From the IMG/VR virus record IMGVR_UViG_2681813316_000026: a stretch of 34,941 nt of DNA. One strand, written 5' to 3'. Every line of letters begins with the position of its first letter. Positions within the stretch are counted from its first letter, which is position 1. A program made the translations under genes and the position numbers. A model generated the notes under the pieces. That model was not told the origin of the DNA and did no database searches. It worked only from the letters and a program-made list of their open reading frames with translations. This document shows positions 1 through 34,941 of the stretch, piece after piece. The stretch is from a virus (taxonomy: Duplodnaviria > Heunggongvirae > Uroviricota > Caudoviricetes).

Positions 1-495
1 ATGCCATTTGCTCGTTATTTCTGCATTTTCATAAACGTTGGTTTGGGAGAAGGTGCTCCAGCTATTGGCGTTCCGTTCTTCTGGCCGTCCGCTGCAATGC
101 CAAATACTGTAATCGACAGCTGGTCCAGTATGGTGTTTTTGAAGTTCAACGGGGCGAAATTTTCTGCCTCTGATTACCCTGTGCTGGCGAAAGTGTTTCC
201 TTCACTGGTATTACCTGAAGCCCGCGGTGATTTCATTCGTATCTGGGATGATGGGCGAGGGGCGGACAGTGGGCGAGCATTATTAAGTTGGCAGGCAGCA
301 ACAGCTTTATCGCAATTTGGCGGTAATTATCCAGAAGGGTCCGGCCATTCGATTGATAATCACGATGGGATATCAGCACACCACCCAGGTTTCTCTCGAT
401 TTCAGTACACCAGTAACTCAGTAGGAGATGGGGTTAATTTTATTGCCGTCAGACCACGTAACATTGCATTTAACTTTCTGGTGAGGGCTAAATAA
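1..495 (+). CDS. Tail-fibre C-terminal variable segment, alternative copy (Sv'), currently in the silent orientation of the invertible cassette
   Basis: ORF on the strand opposite the fibre gene at 1490-2074. The crossover site at 26-51 lies inside its 5' end and encodes GLGEG, matching GFGEG at the junction in the expressed fibre. Bases 1-25 are the reverse complement of the pin-proximal flank at 31705-31729. Confidence 0.6.
   Translation: MPFARYFCIFINVGLGEGAPAIGVPFFWPSAAMPNTVIDSWSSMVFLKFNGAKFSASDYPVLAKVFPSLVLPEARGDFIRIWDDGRGADSGRALLSWQAATALSQFGGNYPEGSGHSIDNHDGISAHHPGFSRFQYTSNSVGDGVNFIAVRPRNIAFNFLVRAK
26..51. repeat. Invertase crossover site, right inverted repeat (gix/hix-like, 26 bp)
   Basis: Reverse complement reads TTCTCCCAAACCAACGTTTATGAAAA. 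Matches the site at 1772-1797 in inverted orientation and resembles recalled hix/gix sites with a central AA dinucleotide. Confidence 0.6.
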
Positions 496-1088
496 TGAAA
501 CCTGTTTTTGATGAAAATGGACTGGCTACAGTGCCGGGTGATATGCGTTGTTTTTATTATGATGCAGTAACGTATGAATATACGGGCTGGTCTGATGAAT
601 ATATTAATACTGGTGTAAGTATGCCCGCCTGTTCCACTGGTATTGACCCTGGCGAAAACATTCCGGGAAAAGCGGCTGTATTTACAGGTAAGGGATGGAG
701 CCATGAAGAGGACCATCGCAATGAGACTGTTTACTCAATCGAAAATGGCGCAGCTGTTACAGTGGGTTATATCGGTGCTATCAAAAACGGTTATGTCACG
801 CTTTCACCGTTAACGCCATATGATAAATGGGATGGTGAGAAATGGGTGACAGATACTGAGGCACAACACAGTGCCGCAGTAGAAGCGGCAGAAGCACAGC
901 GCCAGTCACTGATTGATGCAGCAATGGCTTCCATCAGTCTGATTCAGCTGAAATTACAGGCCGGACGGAAACTGACTCAGGCAGAAACAACCCGACTTAA
1001 CGCCGTGCTGGATTACATTGACGCGGTGACGGCAACAGATACCAGCACCGCGCCGGATGTCATCTGGCCTGAACTGCCGGAGGCGTAG
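495..1088 (+). CDS. Tail fibre assembly protein (Tfa/U' type), alternative copy
   Basis: Immediately follows the alternative fibre segment. Its 3' end overlaps the convergent tfa at 1060-1488, as in Mu G-segment U/U' pairs. C-terminal TSTAPD.IWP.LP motif is shared with the other Tfa. Confidence 0.7.
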
Positions 1089-1488
1089 GCCATTCAATAT
1101 CGGGTGCTGTTGAAGTATCAACACGCATCAGCAGCACACGGTATTTCTTCCATTCGGTGAGAGTTGAAGTTTCTTCATCAGTTGCGATATCAGCATCAAC
1201 AGCATCCTGACGCCAGGATATTTCACTGTCAGCTTTTTCCCGTAATTGGGATTTTTTAACTTCAGCAATAGCTATTAATTCCTTTTTGGTCGGCTGAGGA
1301 ATATCTATCAGTGCTGGTTTTCCATTCAGTGTTCCAATCTGTTTTCCTGGTGGAATATCCATAAATAACTTTTTATGTTCTTCCTCACTGACTATTACAC
1401 CATCATCAGGCCACAGACCTGATGCCTCAAATTTTTCTTTCTCCGATATGGGGAAAAAGCCATTTGCTTTAGCGCTCCATACGTACAT
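1060..1488 (-). CDS. Tail fibre assembly protein (Tfa/U type)
   Basis: ATG at 1488 directly after the fibre stop. C-terminal [10 protein letters not shown] motif. 5' 269 bp is duplicated at 31127-31395. Confidence 0.7.
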
Positions 1489-1489
1489 A

Positions 1490-2074
1490 TCAATACCCCA
1501 CCGCTATAATGTCCACATTAAATCCCCCGGGACCTGCCTGCCAGATGCTGGCCCCTGTTAATGATTTTGTTTGATGAACAACCGCCACATTTGCTGGCGA
1601 TAGTGTTTCAGTTGTTACAGTACCGATATCATTCCAGTTAATTGAGATGGAATAGTTCGTTGTTGTAAACGACCGGGGGAAAGTTATGTGTCTTGCATTG
1701 GTGCCAACAGGAAATCCAAGATAAACACGCTGAATTATCATTCCTCCAGGTAACATAACCCAGTTAGCACCTTCTCCAAAACCAAGGTTTTCGAGAGCCG
1801 TTTGCACAGTGCCATCCGATTTGATATCGCCAAACGGATTCTTGCGGCTTAACAGCAGCGCGCGAAGTGCGGTAAGTAACTGGTCGTGCCGCCCCTTCTC
1901 CAGGCTGGCACCGGATGCCTCCACCACGCTGCAAAGTTCCTCCTGCAACATGTCAAAGTAGTCATCATCCAGATCGGTGGCAGGCGTGCCGGTCTGGGGG
2001 TTACCACGGGTAAAACCGTTCTTACCCGCGCCGAACTTATCCTTCTGCGCGGTTTTCGTGTCTATACGATGCAT
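1490..2074 (-). CDS. Tail fibre protein: constant N-terminal part joined across the crossover site to the expressed variable C-terminal part
   Basis: Last late gene after the baseplate genes. Crossover site 1772-1797 lies in frame inside the ORF. Sequence downstream of the site (1490-1785) is duplicated at 31397-31692. Confidence 0.7.
1772..1797. repeat. Invertase crossover site, left inverted repeat (gix/hix-like)
   Basis: TTCTCCAAAACCAAGGTTTTCGAGAG, an imperfect palindrome around a central AA. Inverted relative to the site at 26-51. Confidence 0.6.
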
Positions 2075-7075: not shown

Positions 7076-7085
7076 ATACACTCCG

Positions 7086-7116: not shown

Positions 7117-7136
7117 CTTGTAATGAATTTTATTAA

Positions 7137-7667: not shown

Positions 7668-7758
7668 TTTTCGCCTATTAACATTTTTCTAAATGTGCAT
7701 TAATTCTATCACTCTATTTATGACTTACAACCAGCAATACATGTGAGGGGAATCCTGG

Positions 7759-12008: not shown

Positions 12009-12016
12009 GAGGATCC

Positions 12017-13785: not shown

Positions 13786-13787
13786 AC

Positions 13788-13988: not shown

Positions 13989-14037
13989 GATTCTTCACCC
14001 GTCAGAACAGGGGGCGCGGTTCCGCGCCCTTGAGTGA

Positions 14038-15243: not shown

Positions 15244-15257
15244 CGTATTTCTCCTGA

Positions 15258-15944
15258 TTAGAAGTTCAGATTTTTCAGTGCATTCAGTGCAGAGCCCACA
15301 TCCTCAGCGTCGCGCAGGGACAGTGCGCTATAGCCCCCGGCCATGAATGCTTTGGCCTGGGTGCGGGAGAGTCCGACATCACGCAGGACTCTTTCGATTT
15401 TTTTCTGTTCGGGGATTTCCCCGCGGGCCAGTGCGTTCTTGACGTCGCTGATCCGCGCCTCGTCGTTAGACGGGAACGTCACCAGGCTGACTTCCCAGAG
15501 GTCGATTTCTTTCAGCAGAAAGGCTTCTTTGCTCCGGTCGTATTCCCAGTCTTTCAGGACGTACCCAATAGAAAGGCCGGTTAACGAACCGGCCTTCATG
15601 TGTGCATGTGCGCGTTTTGCGAGGGGATCATCATCAATAAGCAACCGTCCCCTGACGTAAAGCCCGACATCGTCTTCCTTCATTTCGGTGTAAACACCGA
15701 TGGGTTCATCCATGCGGTGCTGCCAGAGCAGCGCAGGTAACGCTTTTCTGTCACTCCACGCCCGCAGGGAAGCAGCAAATGCCCCGGACATCACCACATC
15801 ATCGTGGCTGTCCTTTACACCAAAGACGGAGCCATACCCTTCAAACTCACCGGAGTCACTGACAGATTTCAGACTCAGCGGTACATCAAGACGTTGTTTC
15901 GTCTGCATTGGCGTTATCCTTCTGCTTACCGGCTTTACTGCCAT
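15258..15944 (-). CDS. Prohead maturation protease, HK97 family
   Basis: GEFEGYGSVFGVKDSHDD motif near the N-terminus. Overlaps the portal 3' end. True start may be the internal ATG at 15908. Confidence 0.8.
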   Translation of the reverse strand: MAVKPVSRRITPMQTKQRLDVPLSLKSVSDSGEFEGYGSVFGVKDSHDDVVMSGAFAASLRAWSDRKALPALLWQHRMDEPIGVYTEMKEDDVGLYVRGRLLIDDDPLAKRAHAHMKAGSLTGLSIGYVLKDWEYDRSKEAFLLKEIDLWEVSLVTFPSNDEARISDVKNALARGEIPEQKKIERVLRDVGLSRTQAKAFMAGGYSALSLRDAEDVGSALNALKNLNF

Positions 15945-17127
15945 CGGAGGGTTTCGTGGTCATGTTCATCGGTGTGAGATAGACATCACCACCGGGACGC
16001 GGATTCATATCTTCCAGGTCGCGGCAGTCATTGGGAGAGTAAATTCCCCAGTTGATCCCGGTGGCGTAGGCTTCAAAACGGGACTTCATATCCCCGCGCA
16101 GTAACGCCCCGGCGTTAAATTTGGCGTAATAAACGCCCTGCTTACTTTTTCGTACCAGTCCGGTGTTGATCCGCTGTTCGATGCGGGTCAGATACGGCAC
16201 CAGTGAATAGTTGATAAATCCCAGCCCCAGCTCTTCGATATTGTTGAAGGTGGCGCGATCGGTGTTCTGCACCATGTGCAACGGCACCCGGAACAGACGA
16301 CAGATTTCTTCAAGCTGAAACTTGCGGGTTTCCAGGAACTGGCTGTCCTCGGCGTTCAGCGCCATCGACTTCCAGTCCAGCCCCATCTCAAGGATCATCG
16401 GGCGGTGAGCATTGCCAAGCCCGGTGTGACGCTCCTCAAAATCTTTCTTCAGGCGCTCATAAGCCTGATCTGACAGCGTCTGCTCTGTACGCAACACACC
16501 CGACGTCACCGCGCCATTGCTGAACAGTCTGGCCCCGTGCTCTTCGGTCGCAGCTGCCAGCGATATTGCCTCGCGGGCATAGGCGATGGGATTCAGCCCC
16601 ACCAGTCCGTCCAGCGTCAGCGTGCGCACATGCCAGATATCCTCCTGGCTCAGTACATCCGTGGAGCCATCCGGGAATGTGACCTGATAGATCGGCTCCC
16701 AGCTACTGTTAAGCTTCGGTACCACACAGCCGGGATCGACGGGCAGCAGTTCAGCCACTTCGCCAAATGCTTTCACTTTGTAGGCGTAAAAGTTTCCCCG
16801 TAGGCACAGACAGGTGACCACCAGCTCCCAGAACTCCTGCGGCGTCATATAGCCATTGGGATGCGTGGAGATCAGTTTATGCAGACGTTCGCCGGTGGCT
16901 CTCTGTTTCAGGCTGCCGTTCAGGTGATACAGGTTGCAGGGCAACATCCCGACCGACTCCGCCAGCACCCTGACGCAGGAAAAAACCGCCGTCAGTCGCA
17001 TGGCCCGCTGGCTGCTGATCTGCTTTCCGGTATAGGTGTCATATGACAGCCCGATAGCATCCGCCAGCTCTGCTGGCGTGGTCACCGGTGCGTCACTTTT
17101 TCGTTGAAATAATCCCGAAAAGAACAC
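15886..17127 (-). CDS. Portal protein, HK97 family
   Basis: 413-aa ORF between terminase and protease. Confidence 0.85.
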   Translation of the reverse strand: MFFSGLFQRKSDAPVTTPAELADAIGLSYDTYTGKQISSQRAMRLTAVFSCVRVLAESVGMLPCNLYHLNGSLKQRATGERLHKLISTHPNGYMTPQEFWELVVTCLCLRGNFYAYKVKAFGEVAELLPVDPGCVVPKLNSSWEPIYQVTFPDGSTDVLSQEDIWHVRTLTLDGLVGLNPIAYAREAISLAAATEEHGARLFSNGAVTSGVLRTEQTLSDQAYERLKKDFEERHTGLGNAHRPMILEMGLDWKSMALNAEDSQFLETRKFQLEEICRLFRVPLHMVQNTDRATFNNIEELGLGFINYSLVPYLTRIEQRINTGLVRKSKQGVYYAKFNAGALLRGDMKSRFEAYATGINWGIYSPNDCRDLEDMNPRPGGDVYLTPMNMTTKPSDGSKAGKQKDNANADETTS

Positions 17128-17309
17128 TATTTACCTCCGCCGACAGACGGCTGTGTACGGTCGAGATATCGCGCCACCAGCCACGACCAGAACAGGCACA
17201 GCGCCCCGGCAACAACAAACCCCGCCGGGGGATAAATCAGCCAGGCACCATACGCCAGCAAAAGCGCACCCAGCACGCCCACCAGAGGCGCGAGAATCAG
17301 CATGATCAT
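17127..17309 (-). CDS. Small two-helix membrane protein (hypothetical)
   Basis: 60-aa hydrophobic ORF between terminase large subunit and portal. ATG at 17309 with a GAGGT ribosome-binding site. Confidence 0.45.
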
Positions 17310-17320
17310 AATTACCTCAG

Positions 17321-19054
17321 TTAAAGCGAGCGGATCCCATAGGACTCAATGTGGTCAGACAGCGTGTCTTCTTTCTCGTACAGCATGGCTCTGCCAACCG
17401 CCATAATCAGCGCAACTGCACCATCGATTTTGTTTTCCGCCTGCTCTTTGACGGGCTTCACCACATCATCGTTACCCGGAATGGTTTTGCCGACCACGTT
17501 GCCGATACACCAGGTCATGATGGGATTGCCATCATGATGAAAGCGCCCCGATTCAATTGCCGCTTCCAGCTCTTTCATCGGGTCGGACATGTTGGTGTAG
17601 TTCTGAATGATGGTGACGGGGTTCAGGTCTTCATCAGCAAGGTCATGTGAGAGCCCGGTCGCCCCGAAGGGGTCGATGGGTGACTCGCTGACCGGGCTGA
17701 TTTTGTTCGCCGCTTTGGCCTCTTCGAGGATGTAGCGATAATCCACCTCTGCACCATCGGTAACGGTCAGGACGCCCATTTCCACCCATTTCTGAAAGCG
17801 TTCGGCTGTCCGTCGATCTTCATTTTTCTCGACGCTGTACACCGTGTCATACGGTACCCAGAAACGCGGGGCCACACTGTAGTAATGCGTTTTACCGTCA
17901 ATCTCGCGGGTATAAAGTCGCGCCATGCTGTTCATATCCAGCTTACGCGCCAGGTCAAAGGCCAGAATGCACGGCTGCCCCTCGAACTGCTCAAGGGTCA
18001 GTGATTTATCCTCGCAGCTCTGCCAGCTTACCAGGTTGAAATACGCCGAACGCGCCGACACCCAGATATTGAGGTGTTTTGTTTTAAAGACGTTTGCCAG
18101 ACGGGCGTTATTTTTCGCACGCTGCTGCTGACTTAACAAAAATTCGCGATAAACCGACACGCCAATATTTGGATTGGCTTTTTCCAGCACCTGCGGGTCG
18201 GTCCAGTCATCACCTTCATCAACGGTATAGATGATCCCGAACAGTTCATCGTTGGGTACCGAACCGTTGAGCATCTCGATGACTTCCCGCCGTTTGTCGT
18301 AGCACGGCCCCTCAATGTTGTACCCGGCGGTAGTGATAGCCCACATCAGTGGCTGACGTCGCGCCCCCATCCCGGTAAGCATCGTGGTGTAAAGCGCATC
18401 TGTGGCGTGCTCGTGATATTCATCCACCACCGCACAGTGGGGTGATGAACCATCACCAGGGTTACCGATCAGCGGTTCAAAACGCGCACCATCCTCCGGA
18501 CGGTTCATGTTTGAGGCGTTAACCTCAATCCCGAACGCTTCCGTCAGCATGGGTGTGCGTTTACACATCAGTCGTGCCGGACGAAAGACTTCCCACGCCT
18601 GTTTCTCCGTCGTGGCACCGGAATACACTTCCGCGCCAAACTCGTTATCACAGGCAAAACAATAAAGGGCAACACCGGCAGAGATTGCCGATTTGCCGTT
18701 CTTACGGGGGATTTCGGTATACACCTCCCGGAAGCGGCGCAATCGGGAGCCTTTATTGACCCAGCCAAACGCACAGCAGATCACAAATAGCTGCCACGGC
18801 TCCAGCGTGATGGGCATCCGTTTAAATGCCCAATCACCCTTGGTGTGCGGCAACAGCTGAATAAATTTGGCGGCCCGTTCAGCCAGGTCCTTGTCGAAGC
18901 GGTAACGAAACGACTTACTTTTTTCCGCCATCAGGTCATCAAGATGGCGCTGGCAGGCCTGAATCACAAACTGGCAGGCCACAATCTTTCCGCGCACGAC
19001 ATCACGGGCATACTGATTGGCAGCATTTACGTTGGGGTAAGATTTCCGGCTCAT
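17321..19054 (-). CDS. Terminase large subunit
   Basis: 577-aa ORF with ATPase and nuclease regions, following the small subunit with a 4-bp overlap. Confidence 0.9.
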
Positions 19055-20021: not shown

Positions 20022-20071
20022 TAATGCTTCCCTTTAAGTTATTACGATGGAACAGACCATAGAAATGGCAA

Positions 20072-20094
20072 TAAAAAACCGCCCGGAGGCGGTT
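20072..20094 (-). terminator. Rho-independent terminator
   Basis: Minus-strand hairpin CCGCC-N4-GGCGG followed by TTTTTTTAT, between the 20114-20434 moron and the HNH gene. Confidence 0.55.
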
Positions 20095-20113
20095 CAATTA
20101 TCATCTCGATAAA

Positions 20114-20434
20114 CTAAATCAGATCACCAATGTATTTTGCACTAATTGAAATTTGCATCTGAGGCATTCCGACCACAGATCCATTTAACAGGTAATCACG
20201 TCCTCGTTCCTGCAAAGAAAGACTCAATTCAAAGTTCTTTACCCCAGGGAAAACCGAGGTGACATTTAAATCATGCTGCGATACGCGCAGAATAAGTTGG
20301 CTACCGTCAATTTTTCCCTGATACGTAAAACCAAAATCTCCGCCGTTTACTGCATTGTTTTTGACAACTACGGTACCATTACCAAAATCACGTTGATTGC
20401 TTCTGAAAACAACAAAATAGATACCATCTTTCAT
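20114..20434 (-). CDS. Moron: small AT-rich hypothetical protein downstream of the lysis cassette
   Basis: 106-aa ORF with an ATG start, low GC, and its own terminator. Confidence 0.5.
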   Translation of the reverse strand: MKDGIYFVVFRSNQRDFGNGTVVVKNNAVNGGDFGFTYQGKIDGSQLILRVSQHDLNVTSVFPGVKNFELSLSLQERGRDYLLNGSVVGMPQMQISISAKYIGDLI

Positions 20435-20526
20435 GTGTAAAGCCCTTTAAAAGAGTCACCAAAATCAGGTGCTTTGTATCTATTGGGCCATCACATATCA
20501 AATCAAGGAACAAAACAAAGTTAACA

Positions 20527-20796
20527 TCATTTTTTTTGCATGATGTGACCACGCTCAACTTCAATCCTTCTGATGTCAGCTTTATCGGTATTACACTGCG
20601 CCAATGCAGACAACAAGGCGACATTCAGATCTAAGCTCGAGCCCCACGTAAAATGATCAGGTAAATCAGGCTGAGGGGTTTCAGCCGTCAGGCTGGCTGG
20701 TAACGGAACTACCGGAACCTGGACGTAAACTGTTCGCGTACTTCCGCAACCGGTCAGCAGCGGCAGCAGGCACAGGACGTGAAGCACAATCATCAT
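20527..20796 (-). CDS. o-spanin (Rz1-like outer-membrane lipoprotein)
   Basis: Starts in the +1 frame inside the Rz gene (MMIVLHVLCLLPLLTGC, lipobox LTGC) and is proline-rich. Extends past the Rz stop. Confidence 0.55.
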   Translation of the reverse strand: MMIVLHVLCLLPLLTGCGSTRTVYVQVPVVPLPASLTAETPQPDLPDHFTWGSSLDLNVALLSALAQCNTDKADIRRIEVERGHIMQKK

Positions 20797-21073
20797 CCGC
20801 AACAGCCACTTTGATATCTTCCTGGGTTCTCTGTGACTCCAGTGCGATCTGCTGTTTTGCATGTTGATTCGCCTCCTGAATGATGTTCGTTATTGCCATA
20901 GTACGCAGAACATTCGCGGTGATAGCCTCAGTAGAATCAGCTCGCTGTTCCGCAGCATCAGCACGCTTCTGCTCCTCCAGAAACTTTCCATGATAGTGAT
21001 TCGCTGACCAGACAAGACCACCAGCGACACAAGCAATAAACGTTAAAATGAGCGCCCAATAACTCATCTTCAT
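20681..21073 (-). CDS. i-spanin (Rz-like)
   Basis: N-terminal transmembrane helix followed by a charged coiled-coil body. Follows the endolysin with a 4-bp overlap. Confidence 0.65.
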   Translation of the reverse strand: MKMSYWALILTFIACVAGGLVWSANHYHGKFLEEQKRADAAEQRADSTEAITANVLRTMAITNIIQEANQHAKQQIALESQRTQEDIKVAVADDDCASRPVPAAAADRLRKYANSLRPGSGSSVTSQPDG

Positions 21074-21684
21074 ACCAGCAGCGCCGCCCGCGCCTTGTTG
21101 TATCGGACCTTACGATCCTCAATACCGTTCAAACCGCCGTTAATGATGCGCGTAACACGGTTAATATCGGCACCGTAGATCATGCAACCTTTAGAGGTGT
21201 AGAACCATGCAGCTGAGCGCGCAGCCTGTAGTTCCTGTTCCAGTTGTTCAGGTGAAGTCACCAGATCTAACTTCAGCGCCGCGCCACAGATGCGATAATT
21301 ATGGAGGCCAGTGATTTGAATTAATCCTCTACCACGATATTTCCAGCCATCACCTGGTGCTTTGTTACCCAGTCGGTTGCTATACACCAGATTGGCAATA
21401 GCATCCTGACGAGCTGCATGTCCGGATGTTCTGCCAAGGGCATCAGCCTGCTGCTGTGTGATCCTCTTTCCGAACGTCGCCACAAGCGCAGATGGTGTGT
21501 AGTTAAGATTTTCAACTACGGCGCTAAACCCCATCGACTCATGGCCTACCTGAGCGATAAACATTGCCTGATCCGCTGGTGCTGTAATGCCGAATTCCTT
21601 CATCGCCGCATCAATGTGCGGAAACCAGCGCGCAGCCAGCCCGGCGCTAATACCAGCCGCCTTTTGAAATAATTGTTGGTTCAT
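21070..21684 (-). CDS. Endolysin, glycoside hydrolase family 19 (chitinase-like lysozyme)
   Basis: FIAQVGHESMGF and GRGLIQITGLHNY motifs. Confidence 0.8.
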   Translation of the reverse strand: MNQQLFQKAAGISAGLAARWFPHIDAAMKEFGITAPADQAMFIAQVGHESMGFSAVVENLNYTPSALVATFGKRITQQQADALGRTSGHAARQDAIANLVYSNRLGNKAPGDGWKYRGRGLIQITGLHNYRICGAALKLDLVTSPEQLEQELQAARSAAWFYTSKGCMIYGADINRVTRIINGGLNGIEDRKVRYNKARAALLV

Positions 21685-21965
21685 TAGTGCCTCAGATGAT
21701 CAACCAGACGTGCAACGTTGCCTCTGACAGCCACCAGCACGGAAAGAAAAATAGTGTTCGCCACGATAATGGGCCATGAGGAATGGGGATAAATCCCACA
21801 GAGATAGGCCAACGGAACAGCACTGTATGTAACAGTAATCAGCCAGGCTAAACGTGAAACCCAAGGACGATGCCGCGAATCACCACGACGATAAAACATC
21901 AGAGTAATAACAACACAAGCACATAACAGCGCATTTATAGTTGCTGTCGGGTCATTTAGCTCCAC
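21684..21965 (-). CDS. Holin-like small membrane protein (second holin or antiholin candidate)
   Basis: 93-aa ORF with about three hydrophobic helices, between holin and endolysin, overlapping the holin 3' end. Confidence 0.45.
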   Translation of the reverse strand: MELNDPTATINALLCACVVITLMFYRRGDSRHRPWVSRLAWLITVTYSAVPLAYLCGIYPHSSWPIIVANTIFLSVLVAVRGNVARLVDHLRH

Positions 21966-22338
21966 CTGAACCTCCCCGGCGCGTTATGAGCGCCACCAGC
22001 GAGCCGATATCCTGATTATTCAGGAACGTCAGGATTTTAACGGCTAAAGCAGAGACGATTACGGCACCAATAGCATCCAGAGGTTTATCACTGTATCCGG
22101 TCAAGTTCGCCAGCTTGGAGCCAACCAACCCAGAGCAAAGAATCCCGGCAATATATGACACGATAAAATATGCCAGTCGGCGCGATGCACTCAGATCTGC
22201 AGCTGTTGCTATGTAGAATACAGCCCCTGCAAATGCGCCAAATACAACGCCGTAATCAGTTCCGGTCAGCAGTCCATAAACACTGGCACCCGTCAGGGCA
22301 CCACCAGCCAGCCCAGTACCGGAAATCGGATCGGACAT
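21952..22338 (-). CDS. Putative holin
   Basis: 128-aa Gly/Ala-rich multi-helix membrane protein, first gene of the lysis cassette. ATG at 22338 with a GAGGGGG ribosome-binding site. Confidence 0.55.
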   Translation of the reverse strand: MSDPISGTGLAGGALTGASVYGLLTGTDYGVVFGAFAGAVFYIATAADLSASRRLAYFIVSYIAGILCSGLVGSKLANLTGYSDKPLDAIGAVIVSALAVKILTFLNNQDIGSLVALITRRGGSGGAK

Positions 22339-22382
22339 TTAGCCCCCTCTTAATTGCTGTTGGTCCTCTCAGAACGAGGGGA

Positions 22383-22410
22383 AACAAAAAAGGCCGCATT
22401 AAGGCGGCCT
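22383..22410 (-). terminator. Rho-independent terminator after the Q-S moron
   Basis: Minus-strand hairpin AGGCCGCC-TTAAT-GCGGCCT followed by TTTTTTG, 19 nt downstream of the 22429 stop. Confidence 0.6.
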
Positions 22411-22428
22411 TGGTAAGGTATAGTTTTT

Positions 22429-23025
22429 TTAAGATAAACTTTGATTGATATACTCATGACACCCAAAAATAAAGGCGTTTTGTGCATCAATAAATGACTT
22501 TTTTTCTTCCGGAGTAAAATACCCTTTTGTAAAACATACTTTTAGCGCTTTTTGAAGATCTGCCGTCAGGGTTATCAACTTACAACCTTCCTCATCAGGC
22601 CTTATTAATAGAAGTAATTTATTTTTACTTATTTCAGCGGCCTTTATTGGAACTTGAATCTCCTCAGGGAAAACACCCTTAGCCAATATATCCATATTCT
22701 TATTTCCGACCAGATGCCATTGCTCAAATGTGCTGGCCAACATAATTACGTCTGTCACATGCTCAGCGCCAGCAAAACGTATTTGTTGCGCCAATTCTTT
22801 ATTAGTATTCAAGTGAGCCTGTAATGTGGCTAAGGCAAAATTTTCTTTGATTGCCCTGTATGCAACCCAACCAGTTATTCCTGCGGCAATAACGCCTGCA
22901 AGAGCAGTAATGAGTGTTTCAAAAGGAAAGGAAGAACTGATTTCAATTGGCGGTAATTTTTCTATTACCAAGGTCAACTCGCCAGTAGTTTTTTCGAAAG
23001 CGTACGGTACGTTTTGCCAAGTCAT
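22429..23025 (-). CDS. Moron: single-pass membrane protein of unknown function between the Q-like gene and the holin
   Basis: 198-aa ORF with ATG at 23025 and an AGGAGG ribosome-binding site. One predicted TM helix (LITALAGVIAAGITGWVAYRAI). AT-rich, flanked by terminators on both sides. Confidence 0.6.
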   Translation of the reverse strand: MTWQNVPYAFEKTTGELTLVIEKLPPIEISSSFPFETLITALAGVIAAGITGWVAYRAIKENFALATLQAHLNTNKELAQQIRFAGAEHVTDVIMLASTFEQWHLVGNKNMDILAKGVFPEEIQVPIKAAEISKNKLLLLIRPDEEGCKLITLTADLQKALKVCFTKGYFTPEEKKSFIDAQNAFIFGCHEYINQSLS

Positions 23026-23054
23026 GAAGCCTCCTGAGTTTCAGAGGAATCATA

Positions 23055-23082
23055 ACAAAAAAACCCGCTCAATGGCGGGCTC
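23055..23082 (-). terminator. tR'-like rho-independent terminator downstream of the Q-like gene
   Basis: Minus-strand hairpin CCCGC-CATTGA-GCGGG followed by TTTTTTT, about 50 nt after the Q-like stop and just upstream of the moron RBS. Confidence 0.55.
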
Positions 23083-23131
23083 TTAATGTTGTGTTGCTCA
23101 GTTCGCTTTAACGTCCCGAGCCTACCACAAT

Positions 23132-23710
23132 TTAAGCACTTTCTTGCTCACTCTGCAACTTAAATCTGTCGCTATTTGTGCCGAATGCGTCACAAACTGG
23201 AGCGTACAGGATCGATTCTGCAAGACTTAGCCAAGTGTCAATGCGTCGACGACAGGTGATCAGCGGCCAGTCAGGATGTTTAGCCTGCAGTTCATTGGCC
23301 ATCTGCAACTTGCTCTTACGAAGACGATACCGGTCAACAATCACGCTATAGAGCGATCGGTAGTCATCATTCATCAGTACTGAAGCAATGACACCGTCCA
23401 CTAACAACCCTTCTTCATCTGAACAGAACGCCAGGCCGCTTTTATTTTTGCTGTTGAGAATTTCACGCAGGTACGCTTCAAGTTCAGGCTTGGTGATACC
23501 CGCTATCTTCATCCGGCGTAGCGCTTCATTGATAGCTGTCTTGGTGATTTTCCCGGATGCCAGAAGCTGGTTAAACATGTTTCCACCACTACCACCGCCG
23601 ATATAAGACCAGCGGCCCCACATGCGCAACTTGCCTTGTATCCAGATACTTTCCAGAGTACGAAGGCGAACCATTTCACCTGATTTGCCAACTTCAGAAG
23701 GATTAATCAT
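23132..23710 (-). CDS. Putative late-gene antiterminator (Q-like)
   Basis: 192-aa ORF, last gene of the nin-like block and immediately upstream of a terminator and the lysis genes. Assigned mainly by position. Confidence 0.45.
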   Translation of the reverse strand: MINPSEVGKSGEMVRLRTLESIWIQGKLRMWGRWSYIGGGSGGNMFNQLLASGKITKTAINEALRRMKIAGITKPELEAYLREILNSKNKSGLAFCSDEEGLLVDGVIASVLMNDDYRSLYSVIVDRYRLRKSKLQMANELQAKHPDWPLITCRRRIDTWLSLAESILYAPVCDAFGTNSDRFKLQSEQESA

Positions 23711-23724
23711 TTAGCATTCTCCAC

Positions 23725-24720
23725 TTACGCCAGTACGCCTATTGCCAGCGCACGATCGATAAAACGAAATATCAGCTCCAGCTGGGAGCCATACTTCTCT
23801 TCAAATGCCACGGTATCCGCATGCAGCTCGTCGTGATGCTTTCTGCACAAAGGCAACACAAAGAGGTCATGCGCTTTTGTTCCCATTCCACCCTGACCGT
23901 GACCTATCAGGTGGTGGGGATCATCAGCAGGCTTTCCACAACATGCACACGGCTGTGTCTTAACCCAGCGCGTGTACTTTTCATTAACCCAGCGGCGACG
24001 TTTTGGGCGTAACATAAAAGACTCCGGCGACTCCGGATCCACTTTCAGCGCCAGCACCTTTTTCGCCTTATCATGGATGATGCTGGTGGCAGGAATCGAA
24101 GGCACAAGGTCACTTTCCCGGGTGACAGACGGCACAACAGGCTTCGGTAATCTCAGTGCCTTACGGGCTGCACTTTCCGGTAAGGCATCCGCCAGGTCAT
24201 TACGAATCAGCCACCAGCACAGTTCCGGCATTGTCACAACGTGACTGTCATCAAAACCGAGATCCCGACGCACAACAGACAACACCCAGCGGGCACAGTT
24301 ATCCGTTGCCATTGATTCCAGCCGTTCCGTGAACTGATCGCGCAGCTGGTTATCGCAGTGCCAGCACAGACGGATCGCGCCCGGCGCGTGTCGTATTGTG
24401 GTCATGTTCTCGCTGTGCCAGTCGGAATGAGGCCACTGACAGCCCTTTTCACGAAGTAACCAGCTTTCAAGACATTCCACGCCACCAGCACGACGGATCA
24501 CTGCCTCATTGCAGAACACGGCCCGAACGGCAGGATCATCCGCCAGCGGTTGTGATGCCGCGGGAACGGCACCACTGGCGAAAGATGAATAACGTTCCGG
24601 CTCAGGCTCCAGCAGGACACGCCCCTGCATAAACAGGGGCATCAGCTCTGAACTGGGTCTGAACAATACGATCCCCATACGCGGGGCTATTTCAGGGGTC
24701 AGTAGTGCTCTCACGGTCAC
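23725..24720 (-). CDS. DUF968-family protein (YdfU-like)
   Basis: C-terminal cysteine/histidine-rich segment QPCACCGKPADDPHHLIGHG...CRKHHDELH, typical of lambdoid nin regions. Confidence 0.55.
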   Translation of the reverse strand: MTVRALLTPEIAPRMGIVLFRPSSELMPLFMQGRVLLEPEPERYSSFASGAVPAASQPLADDPAVRAVFCNEAVIRRAGGVECLESWLLREKGCQWPHSDWHSENMTTIRHAPGAIRLCWHCDNQLRDQFTERLESMATDNCARWVLSVVRRDLGFDDSHVVTMPELCWWLIRNDLADALPESAARKALRLPKPVVPSVTRESDLVPSIPATSIIHDKAKKVLALKVDPESPESFMLRPKRRRWVNEKYTRWVKTQPCACCGKPADDPHHLIGHGQGGMGTKAHDLFVLPLCRKHHDELHADTVAFEEKYGSQLELIFRFIDRALAIGVLA

Positions 24721-24721
24721 C

Positions 24722-25519
24722 TCAATGAACGGTATCGAGCAGCTTTAACAGCTCAGGGAATCGGGATTCGAAGAAATGCGGCTGCGTCTCGCGCGGATTT
24801 GCGGGACTGGTGATATTCTTGCCGAACATGCAGCCTTTCGCTGTCAGCGACCAGAATTTTTTGATGTTGTTAATCGCGGTACGGCTGTATCGTTCGCGCT
24901 GCTCGACGATCCCCAGCTTCACCATCTGGTGATATGCCTGATTAGCTGTCAGGCGGATACCATACTGCTTCAGCAGTGCACTCAGTGACAGCGTGGGGCG
25001 GCTTGAGCCATCAGGCGCGTCAGCAGGAGCATCAATGGCATAGCGCGGTGCCAGATTCGGTAAGCCAACAGCCTCCTGGAGTTTCTGACAGGCCCCAAGC
25101 ACAGATGAGTTAGACAGATTTAACTCCCGACGCATAAAGTCCAGCAGAATCACACCAGCCTGCATCTTGTCAGCAGCCTGCCCGGATAATTTTTCCGGTA
25201 TGCTGGTTACCATGTCAAAAGTACGGATCACCTTCAGATGGAATGACGGGCTAATCCACATTGCATAGGCATACACCAGTTCCTTGCAGACATACGTTCC
25301 CTGGTTATTTCCACCACGAATGACATTAACTGGCGCTATATTGACCGAGTTGCAAATCTGCAACTCGCTTATTAAGCGTTCAGTTTGCTCATTGCGGAGC
25401 CAGAATGCGGGCTTATGCTTATCCAGAGAACCAGCAGCCCTGTGCAGATCGTTCAGGCTGTAACGACCATAAGCATCACGACGAACTTCAATACCATCAA
25501 TGACCATCAGATTATTCAT
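24722..25519 (-). CDS. KilA-N domain protein (antirepressor-like)
   Basis: Probable start is the ATG at 25519 (MNNLMVIDGIEVR) with an AGGAG ribosome-binding site. N-terminal region resembles the KilA-N domain. Confidence 0.65.
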   Translation of the reverse strand: MNNLMVIDGIEVRRDAYGRYSLNDLHRAAGSLDKHKPAFWLRNEQTERLISELQICNSVNIAPVNVIRGGNNQGTYVCKELVYAYAMWISPSFHLKVIRTFDMVTSIPEKLSGQAADKMQAGVILLDFMRRELNLSNSSVLGACQKLQEAVGLPNLAPRYAIDAPADAPDGSSRPTLSLSALLKQYGIRLTANQAYHQMVKLGIVEQRERYSRTAINNIKKFWSLTAKGCMFGKNITSPANPRETQPHFFESRFPELLKLLDTVH

Positions 25520-26901: not shown

Positions 26902-27389
26902 TAAGCCCCCACGTAATTCCCTGACAGATACCACTCTTCACCCGATGCAGCGCGCTTGCTGCTTTTCCGTAAGCACCGCTCACGACGCGCCAGAAAATTG
27001 TTTCGTTCTGGCTGGGAGTGGCTTTCACGGAATGCCGCCATCCACACGGTTGCAGCACGACGGTATAAGCCCCTGGACTCCAGTTCTTCCGCCTGGCGGG
27101 TCAGGCACAAAATCACACGGGGATCGTTAGTGCCGACATAGAAATTGCGCACAGGTCTGGTTTCACGAACTGGTTGTGGTTCCGGTTCCTGCGCTCTCTC
27201 AGTCAGGCGCGGGAAATGTCTGCGTGTATCTCCTTCACAACGGTGAGCCACACGCCCACTCTGACGTAACTTGCTTGCTGACTGCAGAACGCGCTGCCGT
27301 GAGTAACCGGCAAAAGCATCCGCAATATCTCCGGAAGTACAGCCCGGATGGGCTTCAATGAATTTCTGAACGTCATTCAAAAGACTCAT
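26901..27389 (-). CDS. Hypothetical protein in the replication module
   Basis: Probable start ATG at 27389 (MSLLNDVQKFIEAHPG). Overlaps the 3' end of the initiator gene. Confidence 0.4.
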   Translation of the reverse strand: MSLLNDVQKFIEAHPGCTSGDIADAFAGYSRQRVLQSASKLRQSGRVAHRCEGDTRRHFPRLTERAQEPEPQPVRETRPVRNFYVGTNDPRVILCLTRQAEELESRGLYRRAATVWMAAFRESHSQPERNNFLARRERCLRKSSKRAASGEEWYLSGNYVGA

Positions 27390-28332
27390 GCTCACCCCTG
27401 AATCCTGCCGGGATCTGGCTGTAGTCCACGTTGTCGTAACTGGCTTTGAAGTACGGGTCTTCGCGTTTTTCGGTGTACGTGCTGACGGACGGCGATAAGC
27501 GCAGGGAAAGCTCATCCCATTTTTCCCGCAGCTTCGACGGGCTGAGCACGTTACGGCACCAGAACGGATCGCGACTGACGCGGCTGTACATCTCGCAGAT
27601 TTGTTTATGAGTACGACCATCCTGCACACACATCAGGCGAATTTCGTTTGCCCAGGCTGTCCAGTTCGGTTCTTTGGGACGAACCACCTCGCCGTCACAT
27701 TCGGCGGCCTGCTCGTACAGGGCGATGATTTTTTTCCAGAGCCACTGTGCGCAGGTCAAATCATCCTGCGTTCCCCACTGGCGCTTTTTAGGGCTGAATA
27801 CAACCGCATCAGGATGGCGAGTTAAAAACTCCTGTTCAGCCGTCTGCGTGTCCGGTTGCGAAGCGTCCGGACGAGAAGTTTTTTTATCTGACGGATCATG
27901 TTTTGATTTTACTGACGGATCCCCGCCAGATTCTGACGGGTGAAAACCCGCTTTTTTGCCAGATTTCGACGCATCAAATTTTGACGGGTCAGATTTTGAT
28001 GCGTCAGATTTTGACGGGTCAGAATCTGACAGTTGAGAAAATGCCGCTGCCTGAAGCTTCGCAACGTTAAGCTGATAAACATTCGACGCATTGCGGTTAC
28101 CCTGGCGACGCGCCTTACGCGTTAACCAGCCTTCTGCTTCCAGCCGTGCGATAGCCGTTCTGACGGTACTCATTCCCGCGCCAATCTGGCGGGCAATGGT
28201 TTCAATTGATGGCCAGCACACACCTTCGTCATTACTGAAATCAGCCAGGCGGGCCATAATTGCCACGCTGGATAATTTCATGCCTGATGCAGCGCAACCA
28301 TCCCATACATAGCCGGTTAATTTAGTGCTCAT
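27373..28332 (-). CDS. Replication initiation protein (lambda O-like) carrying the origin iterons
   Basis: N-terminal winged-helix-like region, a central low-complexity SDxSKSD repeat encoded by DNA iterons, and a Trp-rich C-terminal domain. Confidence 0.6.
   Translation of the reverse strand: MSTKLTGYVWDGCAASGMKLSSVAIMARLADFSNDEGVCWPSIETIARQIGAGMSTVRTAIARLEAEGWLTRKARRQGNRNASNVYQLNVAKLQAAAFSQLSDSDPSKSDASKSDPSKFDASKSGKKAGFHPSESGGDPSVKSKHDPSDKKTSRPDASQPDTQTAEQEFLTRHPDAVVFSPKKRQWGTQDDLTCAQWLWKKIIALYEQAAECDGEVVRPKEPNWTAWANEIRLMCVQDGRTHKQICEMYSRVSRDPFWCRNVLSPSKLREKWDELSLRLSPSVSTYTEKREDPYFKASYDNVDYSQIPAGFRGEHESFE
27880..28040. repeat. Iteron array: putative origin of replication inside the initiator gene
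   Basis: At least five direct repeats of a TGACGG(G/A)T-containing unit interleaved with the palindrome TGACGCATCA. Confidence 0.5.
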
Positions 28333-29568: not shown

Positions 29569-30243
29569 ATGAAAACAATCCATGACATCCGGCGGTCTAA
29601 CGCCAGAAAACTGAGAGATGGTGTTGGCGGGAATTCTTCCTTTGCCACTATGATTGATCGCGAGCCAACCCAGACCAGCAGGTTTATGGGAGATGGTGCT
29701 ACTAAAAATATCGGTGACAGCATGGCACGACACATCGAAAAATGTTTCGACCTGCCTGTCGGATGGCTCGATCAAGAACACCAGACAACGAACATCACAA
29801 AAAAACCTGATGTTTCAATCACTAATAAACAAATCACATTAGTCCCTGTCATATCATGGGTACAGGCCGGAGCATGGAAAGAAGTTGGATATTCTGAGGT
29901 TGATTTGAGCACAGCAGAAACGTATCCCTGCCCTGTACCCTGTGGGGAAATGACTTATATCTTGCGGGTGATAGGTGATTCAATGATTGATGAGTACCGC
30001 CCGGGAGACATGATTTTTGTCGATCCTGAAGTACCTGCCTGCCACGGTGACGACGTTATTGCATTGATGCACGATACAGGTGAAACCACCTTCAAAAGGT
30101 TGATAGAAGATGGGACACAGCGTTATCTCAAAGCGTTAAACCCAAACTGGCCTGAGCCTTACATTAAGATCAACGGTAATTGCTCTATAATTGGTACAGT
30201 GATTTTCTCAGGAAAACCAAGAAGATACAAAATCAAAGCCTAA
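29569..30243 (+). CDS. CI-type repressor (HTH domain plus S24 LexA-like autopeptidase domain)
   Basis: 224 aa. C-terminal domain with the GDSM serine motif and a downstream lysine. Divergent from the cro-like gene. Confidence 0.85.
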   Translation: MKTIHDIRRSNARKLRDGVGGNSSFATMIDREPTQTSRFMGDGATKNIGDSMARHIEKCFDLPVGWLDQEHQTTNITKKPDVSITNKQITLVPVISWVQAGAWKEVGYSEVDLSTAETYPCPVPCGEMTYILRVIGDSMIDEYRPGDMIFVDPEVPACHGDDVIALMHDTGETTFKRLIEDGTQRYLKALNPNWPEPYIKINGNCSIIGTVIFSGKPRRYKIKA

Positions 30244-30712: not shown

Positions 30713-30875
30713 TTTTTTCAGGTAACTCGTCGGCATCGCAGAAACAACAACGCTCGATCATGTTGAAAGCCGATTCGTAGAACTGTTTCTGCTGAGTGTC
30801 GCTGAGACAGGAAAAGAGCGACGTTACGATGATTTTATTAATTGCATTATCAAGTTCTTTTTCATCAAAAGTCAT
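30630..30875 (-). CDS. Hypothetical small acidic protein, convergent with the PL-like transcript
   Basis: 81-aa ORF with ATG at 30875 and an AAGGA ribosome-binding site. Contains a CCFC motif. Confidence 0.4.
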   Translation of the reverse strand: MTFDEKELDNAINKIIVTSLFSCLSDTQQKQFYESAFNMIERCCFCDADELPEKIRKQLADALRVRLSDQFSEMCSPNLDK

Positions 30876-31126
30876 TTGATTTTCCTTTTATGTATACGGG
30901 CTTAAAAGGATACCACCGAGCCTGAAGTGGTGAAAAGACAGGCACATAACAGCTAAGTATTTTCAACCAAAGAGAATCCTTAGCGTTGTGGTGAATGCGG
31001 CTCAGCGCACGCGGGTTAAGGTTGAGGCTGACAGTCGACCTTCTGTGGATACCCACCCGCCTGGTGTGCAACCTTCGCCAGGCACCGGGAGGCACCCGGC
31101 ACCACAACTTTATGCTGTGTGTAGTC

Positions 31127-31395
31127 ATTTCACTGTCAGCTTTTTCCCGTAATTGGGATTTTTTAACTTCAGCAATAGCTATTAATTCCTTTTTGGTCGG
31201 CTGAGGAATATCTATCAGTGCTGGTTTTCCATTCAGTGTTCCAATCTGTTTTCCTGGTGGAATATCCATAAATAACTTTTTATGTTCTTCCTCACTGACT
31301 ATTACACCATCATCAGGCCACAGACCTGATGCCTCAAATTTTTCTTTCTCCGATATGGGGAAAAAGCCATTTGCTTTAGCGCTCCATACGTACAT
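31127..31395 (-). pseudogene. Truncated tail fibre assembly gene (5' 269 bp only)
   Basis: Near-identical to 1220-1488. Homology stops at 31127; the track ORF 30865-31395 continues into unrelated sequence with a non-protein-like tail. Confidence 0.65.
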
Positions 31396-31396
31396 A

Positions 31397-31732
31397 TCAA
31401 TACCCCACCGCTATAATGTCCACATTAAATCCCCCGGGACCTGCCTGCCAGATGCTGGCCCCTGTTAATGATTTTGTTTGATGAACAACCGCCACATTTG
31501 CTGGCGATAGTGTTTCAGTTGTTACAGTACCGATATCATTCCAGTTAATTGAGATGGAATAGTTCGTTGTTGTAAACGACCGGGGGAAAGTTATGTGTCT
31601 TGCATTGGTGCCAACAGGAAATCCAAGATAAACACGCTGAATTATCATTCCTCCAGGTAACATAACCCAGTTAGCACCTTCTCCAAAACCAACGTTTATG
31701 AAAATGCAGAAATAACGAGCAAATGGCATCAT
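31397..31732 (-). CDS. Tail-fibre variable C-terminal segment, duplicate of 1490-1785, joined to the pin-proximal flank
   Basis: Residues after the GFGEG crossover junction are identical to the expressed fibre at 1490-1785. The first 13 codons derive from the pin flank. Confidence 0.6.
   Translation of the reverse strand: MMPFARYFCIFINVGFGEGANWVMLPGGMIIQRVYLGFPVGTNARHITFPRSFTTTNYSISINWNDIGTVTTETLSPANVAVVHQTKSLTGASIWQAGPGGFNVDIIAVGY
31679..31704. repeat. Recombinant (hybrid) crossover site
   Basis: TTCTCCAAAACCAACGTTTATGAAAA: left half identical to the site at 1772-1797, right half to the inverted site at 26-51, i.e. the product expected from invertase-mediated exchange. Confidence 0.6.
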
Positions 31733-31758
31733 TCCTGCTTTTGTCAGAGGGATCCACT

Positions 31759-32313
31759 ATGCTTATTGGCTATGTACGCGTATCAACAAATGACCAGAAC
31801 ACCGATCTACAACGTAATGCGTTGAACTGTGCAGGATGTGAGCTGATTTTTGAAGACAAGATAAGCGGTACAAAGTCCGACAGACCAGGACTGAAAAAGC
31901 TGCTCAGGACATTATCGGCAGGTGACACGCTGGTGGTCTGGAAACTGGACCGACTGGGACGCAGTATGCGGCATCTTGTCGTGCTGGTGGAGGAGTTGCG
32001 CGAACGAGGCATCAACTTTCGTAGTCTGACGGATTCAATTGATACCAGTACCCCAATGGGGCGCTTTTTCTTTCATGTGATGGGTGCCCTGGCTGAAATG
32101 GAGCGTGAACTGATTGTTGAACGAACAAAAGCTGGACTGGAAGCAGCTCGCGCACAGGGACGAATTGGTGGACGTCGCCCCAAACTTACACCAGAACAAT
32201 GGGAGCAGGCTGGACGATTAATTGCATCAGGCGTTCCTCGCCAGAAGGTGGCGATCATCTATGATGTTGGTATATCGACACTGTATAAGAAGTTTCCGGT
32301 CGGAGATAAATGA
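31759..32313 (+). CDS. pin: Serine DNA invertase of the Pin/Gin/Hin family
   Basis: Starts MLIGYVRVSTNDQNTDLQRNAL (catalytic serine in the YVRVS motif), with a C-terminal HTH. About 184 aa, GAGGGA ribosome-binding site, directly adjacent to the crossover site. Confidence 0.9.
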   Translation: MLIGYVRVSTNDQNTDLQRNALNCAGCELIFEDKISGTKSDRPGLKKLLRTLSAGDTLVVWKLDRLGRSMRHLVVLVEELRERGINFRSLTDSIDTSTPMGRFFFHVMGALAEMERELIVERTKAGLEAARAQGRIGGRRPKLTPEQWEQAGRLIASGVPRQKVAIIYDVGISTLYKKFPVGDK

Positions 32314-32373
32314 AACCGTAGCACGTCGTATGCAAGAAGATCGTGCTGCGGTTTATGCTTATCACTTAAAGAC

Positions 32374-33243
<870 letters not shown>

Positions 33244-33325
33244 CTAACCCTTTGAATTTACATAGCGCAAAAAGATACCTTTCCTCATAATGTGAGCTAA
33301 TTTTATGTTTCGTTTGATGATCGGG

Positions 33326-33387
33326 TCGGTCTCGAAAACCGGAGTAGGGGCAACTCTACCGGGGGTTCAAATCCCCCTCTCTCCGCC
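33326..33387 (+). other. 3' fragment (about 62 nt) of tRNA-Ser(CGA), putative attachment-site core
   Basis: Matches, from memory, the anticodon stem-loop (CTCGAAA, anticodon CGA), long variable arm, T-arm and acceptor 3' end (GGTTCAAATCC...CCGCCA) of E. coli serU. The 5' acceptor/D-arm is absent. Confidence 0.6.
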
Positions 33388-33961
33388 ACTTTATCAATGA
33401 CTTATCTCCCGACTTCCCGCCTTGCTTTTCCTAAACAGAACAATCGTAGAATATTCTTGAAGGGTTAGATCGTCACTGTTTTCTGTTCGATACTGTGACA
33501 TTCAGCACTTGATTCGCTATGGATCTGACAGGAAGATTTCGAGCGAAAATCTGCAGTTATTCAGTCGTTTTCTTATCGGTCACCATTATTCTTTTAGACA
33601 TTGATCCTACAAAGCTGCCGCAAAGTTGGTGGTGGGAACTGAAGTTGCGTAGAGAAGGGGTCAATACCCGGAGGCAAACATGGGCTGGCAAAAGTGTAGC
33701 GGTATTAGGCGCAGCTATTTAGCCTAGTTATGTTTTATGAAAACTTGATATCATATAAGTGTCTTACTTATTGGCTGTAAATAAGTTTTTCCTAAGGAAT
33801 TGTTTCTTGAATATCATTTGTAACTGTAACGGAATTTATAATCCTTTGCTTTATTGTTACGGTATTTTTTATCACACCCTATTTTTAGTGGTTTTTTATA
33901 CTGAAGTTTGGCAAAGTGAACTTTATATACATATACTTCATCCTGGTTTCAGTTAAATTGG

Positions 33962-34714
33962 GTGGATGATATGGCAACTACATGTTCAGTTATATTGATT
34001 TTGGAGTCCTTTGATGTTTATTTCGGAAAAGAGAGTGTGTTTCTGGAGAGAGGTTCATCTGTACTTGTCGACTCTAGCTCTAGAGATTTTTTCCTGACAT
34101 ATCCTGAAAGAGTGATAGTGGCGGATTTTGGCGCTGAGTTTATTAGTCGCTATTTGAAAGCTAATAACTTAAGGGATATTTCTGATTGTAGGGAATATCC
34201 ATCTTATTTAAAAATAAACTTTGCTGACTTCAGTTTAATTAAAGGATTAATTAGTTGGGCTAATCACTGTGCTGAATACATAGAAATTTTTGATGAGTCT
34301 ATTGCTTTTACATGTCTCTCTGCATTTTCTTCTGAAAAACAATTTGGAGTATTTCTGTTTGGATGTTTGAAAAGCACAGGGGCTAAAGTTAAAACGATTA
34401 TTCATACGGATTTATCTGCACCATGGCGTCTTAAGGATATATCATCAAGATTATATCTCAGCGAAAGTTTACTAAAGAGGAAATTGAAAGAAGAGGGGGT
34501 ATCATTCAGTAAGATCATACTTGATGAGAGGATGCAAATGGCTGAATATTTACTCAGCACTCGTTGTTATCCTATTAGTAAAGTAGCTAAGGTCTGTGGT
34601 TATGCCAGTGTCTCATACTTTACTTATGTATTTAGACGTTATTTTGGTGTTTCTCCAAGTCAATACTCTCAGAGGAGTTCAGAAAGTAAAATTCTTACTC
34701 ACCAGGGAATCTGA
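33962..34714 (+). CDS. AraC-family transcriptional regulator (AppY/GadX-like architecture)
   Basis: 250 aa with a C-terminal AraC-type HTH (ISKVAKVCGYASVSYFTYVFRRYFGVSPSQY). Strongly AT-rich gene and upstream region. Confidence 0.7.
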   Translation: MDDMATTCSVILILESFDVYFGKESVFLERGSSVLVDSSSRDFFLTYPERVIVADFGAEFISRYLKANNLRDISDCREYPSYLKINFADFSLIKGLISWANHCAEYIEIFDESIAFTCLSAFSSEKQFGVFLFGCLKSTGAKVKTIIHTDLSAPWRLKDISSRLYLSESLLKRKLKEEGVSFSKIILDERMQMAEYLLSTRCYPISKVAKVCGYASVSYFTYVFRRYFGVSPSQYSQRSSESKILTHQGI

Positions 34715-34755
34715 TCATTGTTCTTGCCCCCTTATTTCCAGACAGGGGGTGTATC

Positions 34756-34941
34756 TTAAGTTAACGTTACCCGCTGACGTCGATATTCTCGCAGAGAGCG
34801 ATAACCCAACGCACTGTGCGGATGGTTTTCATTGTAATGTTCGATCGCCACTGCAAGATTATGCAATGCCGTTCTTACATTCGGTTTCGGCATGAACGCG
34901 ATGTAGTCTTCCTTCATCGTTTTCACGAACCTTTCTGCCAT
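34756..34941 (-). mobile_element. IS-element transposase fragment (C-terminal end of a DDE integrase-core domain)
   Basis: 61-aa ORF ending ...[18 protein letters not shown], resembling the C-terminus of IS3-type transposases. The rest of the transposase is not in the window. Confidence 0.5.

Follow-up and report, generated by a model that had tools for sequence, protein, structure and literature searches.

A duplicated fibre-cassette arm with a hybrid crossover site in a prophage record is most likely a known Pin inversion system seen through a scaffolding artefact

The window analysed here (the whole 34,941-nt stretch of IMG/VR record IMGVR_UViG_2681813316_000026) begins and ends with parts of a tail fibre cassette. 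Positions 1-37 (minus strand) hold the pin-proximal flank in reverse complement, together with the outer half of a first crossover site, as determined by comparison of the contig ends. An ORF starting from an ATG inside this flank (1..495, plus strand) encodes variable fibre C-terminal segment A. In the window orientation it is promoterless and has no constant part; it gives a weak match to Collar and is annotated in the relative XJ55 as a tail protein missing its N-terminus. Next come tfa-A (495..1088, plus strand; Caudo_TAP, E = 1.6e-27), the tail fibre assembly chaperone for segment A, and, on the minus strand, a full-length, 142-aa tfa-B (1060..1488; Caudo_TAP, E = 1e-33), the chaperone for segment B. 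The expressed fibre gene (1490..2074, minus strand; 194 aa, Gp53-like_C) fuses a constant N-terminus to segment B. Two opposed sets of variable fibre end plus tfa thus lie downstream of one constant fibre N-terminus, which is the layout of an invertible cassette. At 3668-5744 of Logan assembly SRR6072491_42 (L004), this cassette recurs within a Mu-like tail cluster, and its segment-A ORF of 164 aa is identical; pin is not adjacent there, and genes with TrkH, ParB_N and TAGT domains lie upstream instead.

At the other end of the window, segment B is encountered again as a 111-aa ORF on the minus strand (31397..31732) that starts from an ATG in the pin flank, a silent copy in the alternate orientation. 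A chimeric ORF of 176 aa (30865..31395, minus strand) begins with ~90 residues of tfa-B and then reads through into the early region; its match to Caudo_TAP spans only positions 3-84 of 131. The pin gene (31759..32313, plus strand) encodes a serine DNA invertase of 184 aa, with Resolvase (PF00239, E = 1.3e-51) and HTH_7 (PF02796, E = 3.9e-13) domains. Its product is identical to PinE of K-12 at 176 of 184 positions and retains the serine in YVRVSTNDQ, as expected of a serine invertase. A Fis-bound recombinational enhancer usually lies in cis within the 5' part of an invertase gene, and its presence here is assumed from the 96% identity to pinE. Beyond pin are a LEM-3-like GIY-YIG gene (32374..33147, minus strand), a common companion of pin at the end of prophages of this kind, a 62-nt 3' fragment of tRNA-Ser (serU; 33327..33388, plus strand) that is not a tRNA gene, and an AraC gene with an IS fragment.

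Between these ends lies the prophage body. Mu-type baseplate and tail genes, an HK97-type head and terminase occupy approximately 2078-19054 on the minus strand, and a lambdoid early region extends to a LexA/CohE-like repressor of the ymfK type (29569..30243, plus strand; Peptidase_S24), which marks the early end of the body. The lysis and late regulation genes at 20032-25442 are not colinear with XJ55, with matches that are absent or 84-97% identical; judging from the alignments, this divergence would be ordinary module mosaicism in a prophage that is otherwise 98% identical. The replication gene (27373-28332), which encodes an O-like protein of 319 aa, contains approximately five tandem 15-nt repeats resembling CAGATTTTGACGGGT at 27960-28034, and these look like lambda-type origin iterons. 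A sub-threshold Rfam match to the sRNA family STnc100 was observed at 30987-31106 on the plus strand (35.6 bits against a gathering threshold of 47, E = 4e-5). This stretch is GC-rich and structured-looking, and its position in other prophages is taken by a diverged module that shares CACCACAAC.

Three 26-bp crossover sites can be read in the window, and a scan of the whole window with the pix pattern returned no sites beyond them. Site L (26..51, minus strand; TTCTCCCAAACCAACGTTTATGAAAA) joins segment A to the pin flank, reads TTCTCCCAAACC AA CGTTTATGAAAA and is identical to the pinE-proximal site of K-12 e14. Site R (1772..1797, plus strand; TTCTCCAAAACCAAGGTTTTCGAGAG) joins segment B to the constant fibre part, reads TTCTCCAAAACC AA GGTTTTCGAGAG and differs by one base from the second e14 site. 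L and R are inverted with respect to each other, share the central AA and bound the cassette segment, as the two sites of an invertible cassette should. The third, site H (31679..31704, plus strand; TTCTCCAAAACCAACGTTTATGAAAA), joins segment B to the pin flank and reads TTCTCCAAAACC AA CGTTTATGAAAA. The initial annotation was right to call it a hybrid and the product expected from invertase-mediated exchange, but it had the halves reversed: H combines the inner half of R with the outer half of L. Nor is H a special recombinant. The 111-aa ORF that crosses it is present in 19 complete genomes at the chromosomal locus of this prophage. It occurs in 47 blocks of the sequence collection, and in all 10 of the places shown it belongs to a normal cassette with a 142-aa tfa; H is therefore an ordinary alternate-orientation junction of the cassette.

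Pairwise comparison of 1220-1785 with 31127-31692 confirmed the reported near-identical copy, as all 566 of 566 bases are the same in direct repeat, far beyond chance. The repeat ends at the first mismatch, G at 1786 versus C at 31693. Base 31127 is N in the source record, so the truly sequenced repeat is 565 nt, 31128-31692 versus 1221-1785. The first copy takes in segment B, the inner half-site and 269 nt from the 5' end of tfa-B; the second is cut off inside tfa, as had been described, and keeps tfa-B codons 1 to ~90 of 142. A further repeat, absent from the initial annotation, is inverted: window 1-57 is the inverted repeat of 31673-31729, and in the source contig it grows to 108 nt, starting from the first base of the contig and matching window 31673-31780 in reverse complement with one mismatch, located in the crossover site (95 nt exact, the mismatch, then 12 more nt). 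Contig positions 1-95 accordingly match window 31686-31780 exactly in reverse complement, and no further contig sequence lies beyond them; the pin flank at the left end of the window runs 51 nt further left in the contig and 22 nt into pin.

The 566-bp arm at 1220-1785 was also found to be 100% identical in SfV/e14-like, P2-like and Mu-like prophages (loci L001, L004 and L006-L015). Such identity across many chromosomal sites indicates that unrelated phages have probably exchanged cassette arms horizontally in recent times. The lack of any mismatch between the two copies in the window was considered as a sign of recent duplication; since unrelated prophages also have the block at 100% identity, this was rejected.

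Comparison with relatives places both ends of the window. In XJ55, window 1-31126 is colinear with 3769610-3802380; directly left of the cassette lie pin, the GIY-YIG gene, AraC, the IS fragment, yagP' and pao, and past the equivalent of 31126 lie yfdP, yfdQ, yfdR, yfdT, an HTH gene and an integrase next to tRNA-Thr (thrW) and proA. Window 31127-34941 is present in isolate 602 and 18 other complete genomes at 97.5-99% identity, and those 19 genomes carry the full cassette beside pin at the same pao/yagP locus. The few contigs encoding the same rare O protein all show the normal order cI, yfdP, xis, int. The suggestion that the second copy sits where integrase and excisionase would be expected thus holds: relatives carry yfdP, yfdQ, yfdR, yfdT, xis and int at that position, with xis and int following cI and yfdP and with int adjoining thrW.

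Integration at serU, which had also been supposed, is wrong. A prophage at serU should have the intact tRNA gene beside the integrase at one end and a repeat of the serU 3' part at the other, and the window contains only the 62-nt serU 3' fragment and no tRNA gene. A 48-nt repeat of the thrW 3' end lies beyond the IS fragment in XJ55, and a copy matching at 47 of 48 positions lies ~260 nt past the right end of the window in the source contig. On this comparison the prophage appears to be SfV/e14-like and to occupy the thrW (CP4-6) locus rather than serU. The serU fragment itself lies between the GIY-YIG and AraC genes, inside the element bounded by thrW and the thrW 3' repeat, which suggests either a composite island or a phage with a swapped integration module and an old att remnant.

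The window was taken from draft record CYBQ01000013.1 (GCA_001284265.1, 123 kb), with window base 1 at contig base 52; no paper turned up in a search of the literature for this accession. The two agree over 10,495 nt with 0 mismatches and over 17,569 nt across the joint with a single mismatch, an N at contig position 31178 where window position 31127 has A. At the joint the record reads '...gtgtgtagtc n tttcactgtc...', and this N is the sole non-ACGT base in the 31.5 kb of the record that was read. Ambiguous bases were apparently replaced in the window, which hides scaffold gaps from a reader of the sequence alone. Left of 31127 the colinearity with XJ55 ends, and right of it the cassette arm begins. 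Since the source record has N exactly there, the joint is not sequenced DNA but a gap of one N separating two pieces of a short-read assembly. Scaffolders commonly use a single N to mark a gap that is unclosed or of zero length. No explicit single-N convention is given in the GapFiller paper. The left piece (piece A; contig 1-31177, window to 31126) contains the complete cassette in one Pin orientation. The right piece (piece B; from 31128) begins inside tfa-B, continues with segment B next to pin, and then runs into the chromosome. The 176-aa ORF at 30865-31395 exists only because of the scaffold join. The right end of piece A lies 1 nt from the boundary of the yfdP module, lacking the k-1 run-on of a plain de Bruijn contig, so the behaviour of the assembly pipeline is not fully explained.

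No complete genome among 5,426 from E. coli spans the joint at 31126|31127, all matches ending at 31126, and the exact junction 45-mer is absent from IMG/VR. Neither joint-crossing ORF gave an exact-protein match in a non-exhaustive look-up, the 176-aa ORF being called in the source contig. A joint made by Pin at a quasi-site was considered and rejected, as there is neither a shared central dinucleotide nor a pix-like sequence at the joint, and no microhomology between the parental sequences in the joint's own orientation. An 8-nt inverted match (CGCCAGGA / TCCTGGCG) occurs at the two breakpoints (window 1211-1218; XJ55 locus L003, 13380-13387); no recombination or template-switch scheme yields the observed joint from it, and it is probably due to chance. 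The idea that both breakpoints are mosaic boundaries was likewise dropped: it holds for the left one, 1 nt away from the yfdP module, but the right one is not crisp. On the left of the yfdP module, which starts with TGGCGGTACCAG, E. coli prophages have at least two different neighbours, and the module thus marks a recurrent mosaic boundary. It opens with the inverted repeat CGGTACCAG-N20-CTGGTACCG (XJ55 locus L003, 13381-13422), possibly a terminator or a stretch that is difficult to sequence. Genuine joints formed by deletion are known between modules of this kind. In the complete genome of E. coli GPEC403-625 (NZ_CM142769.1, 1978263-1988870; L039), the natural remnant of a prophage that lies between dacD and sbcB has a truncated fibre gene and tfa fused directly to the same early module, followed by yfdR, yfdT and int; its joint differs from that of the window in point and orientation.

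The origin of the second copy was examined by an in silico flip, in which piece A was placed with its left end on the pin flank and the DNA between the central dinucleotides of its two sites was inverted. The result equals window 31128-31780 at 653 of 653 bases and predicts A at the N. Because the flip reproduces it exactly, the start of piece B can be read as an arm of the same cassette in the other state of the Pin switch. Both orientations are also found in actual sequences, since pieces A and B are opposite to each other, as are XJ55 and isolate 602. For e14, both orientations of the pinE segment have been found to coexist in clonal cultures by whole-genome sequencing and PCR (PMC4272514), and a like coexistence here would have supplied reads supporting both junctions.

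We therefore regard the second copy as very probably the single Pin cassette in its other orientation, misjoined across the one-N gap, and hence as an assembly artefact. In the mechanism we propose, Pin would exchange strands at the central AA of the two inverted 26-bp sites and flip the 1.75-kb segment between them, so that the constant fibre N-terminus would be fused either to segment A, served by tfa-A, or to segment B, served by tfa-B. The culture would have held both orientations, so that reads backed the segment A-pin and segment B-pin junctions alike, and a scaffolder or gap-filler would then have joined the early-gene end of piece A to piece B, leaving one N. In the real genome, piece A would be reversed with its pin-flank end joined to pin, while its early end would continue to yfdP, xis, int and thrW on another contig; no contig carrying yfdP, int and thrW was located in the assembly. 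The window as given places pin 30 kb away from the complete cassette, and the left end of the contig overlaps the pin flank and the start of pin; because this left end is the reverse complement of the pin flank over 95 nt, pieces A and B overlap at pin when set in the orientation of the normal layout. Pin adjoins the cassette in all relatives examined, and we infer the same adjacency in the source strain. The initial annotation had offered a tandem remnant of a related prophage or a large rearrangement replacing the int-xis region; neither is needed, as the joint is a single-N gap and the flip explains both the copy and its pin flank. The outcome it had named against itself, an assembly artefact with a single cassette, is the one best supported, given the N at the joint and the exact flip.

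It is improbable, in our judgement, that the order of the scaffold is right and that a partial, inverted copy of the prophage's own cassette arm, with the 5' part of tfa-B, segment B and a site, replaces yfdP, xis and int at the early end of the prophage across a small unsequenced gap. The deposited record does have that order, scaffolders normally need read-pair support, L and H are inverted and both have the central AA, and natural fusions of a fibre cassette to an early module are known, as in the GPEC403-625 remnant. If the order were true, the 31.6-kb body would lie between inverted Pin sites at 26-51 and 31679-31704 and could invert as a whole; excision would be impossible and the prophage locked in the chromosome. 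Against this order stand the N exactly at the joint and the absence of that joint from the 5,426 complete genomes and IMG/VR. Moreover, L and H both abut the one pin flank, and on the same side, so that a second pin flank would be needed; the assembly shows none, and the contig ends within the flank. An illegitimate event of the duplication or inversion type, proceeding without microhomology, would also be required, whereas the flip of a single cassette accounts for every base.

The joint could instead be artefactual and the arm in piece B derived from a second pin-bearing prophage in the same genome, the identical repeat having produced a chimeric contig. In its favour, unrelated prophages of the SfV-like, P2-like and Mu-like kinds have the 566-bp block at 100% identity, different prophage types and loci have the pin flank and the 111-aa ORF in common, and several such cassettes are often found in one E. 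coli genome (up to 11 matching places per genome). This origin is nevertheless very unlikely, since the flip of the resident cassette already predicts piece B exactly, including the site variant and the flank, the coexistence of both states is documented for e14 (PMC4272514), and piece B runs directly into the chromosomal flank of this very locus.

A second prophage or a real duplication would moreover require a sequenced novel joint, where the record has N, and unexplained sequence in the extra copy, where all 653 of 653 bases are predicted by the flip. A real tandem duplication or an extrachromosomal 29.9-kb circle of 1220-31126, combined with Pin flipping and a wrong path through a collapsed repeat, is scarcely credible: 31126 followed by 1220 on the same strand is indeed a head-to-tail joint, but a real joint at useful depth would be assembled through rather than left as N, and this one occurs in no other assembly examined. 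We also considered and rejected inversion, inversion with inverted duplication, tandem-inversion duplication, a tandem duplication or circle, and two prophages with a chromosomal inversion, as none of them works without a second pin flank or additional joints that were not observed.

Read as a single cassette, the system is closest to the P segment and PinE of e14 in K-12, described by Plasterk and van de Putte (1985) and Mehta et al. (2004), both as cited in PMC4272514. The likeness extends from Pin (176 of 184 residues) and the sites, one identical and the other one base off, to the gene order of ymfQ, fibre gene (constant plus variable part), tfa, inverted tfa, inverted variable fibre end and pin; in both systems both orientations have been seen. 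The two differ in that the variable fibre and tfa alleles here are not stfP, tfaP, stfE and tfaE, that pin is followed by the GIY-YIG gene here and by mcrA in e14, and that the present element is a full-length SfV-like one at thrW whereas e14 is degraded and lies at icd. The G segment of Mu with Gin, the C segment of P1 with Cin, and Hin of Salmonella share the serine recombinase with Resolvase and HTH_7 domains beside inverted 26-bp sites with a 2-bp core. Their segments likewise switch alternative fibre C-termini and chaperones, in different phages and with different fibre alleles. Gin, Cin and Hin are serine invertases that depend on an enhancer and on Fis.

Among sequenced phages, the closest are SfII, SfI, SfIV and SfV. 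Together with the Escherichia phages vB_EcoM-689R6 and 720R4, these serotype-converting Shigella phages match 53-76% of window 1-25000 at ~97% identity, covering the HK97-type head, the Mu-type contractile tail and the baseplate. Among the matches listed, those of SfII, SfI and SfV begin only at window position ~1764-1771, inside site R and past the invertible segment. These phages reportedly carry gtr O-antigen modification genes near att instead of a Pin cassette. With its three sites, the window as written superficially resembles the multi-site systems of p15B Min and the shufflons. Multi-site inversion was rejected, as the third site, across the scaffold gap, is the same physical site in its other state, and the source record gives no evidence of three sites on one molecule.

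Taken together, the window most likely contains a known Pin system and a scaffolding artefact, and its biology adds nothing new. The replacement of N by a real base hid the one revealing character. Where a 'recombinant' site is flagged, the contig ends, gaps in the source record and an in silico flip of the neighbouring cassette should be checked first, because an invertible segment present in both orientations within one culture gives rise to pseudo-duplications and pseudo-rearrangements when short reads are scaffolded.
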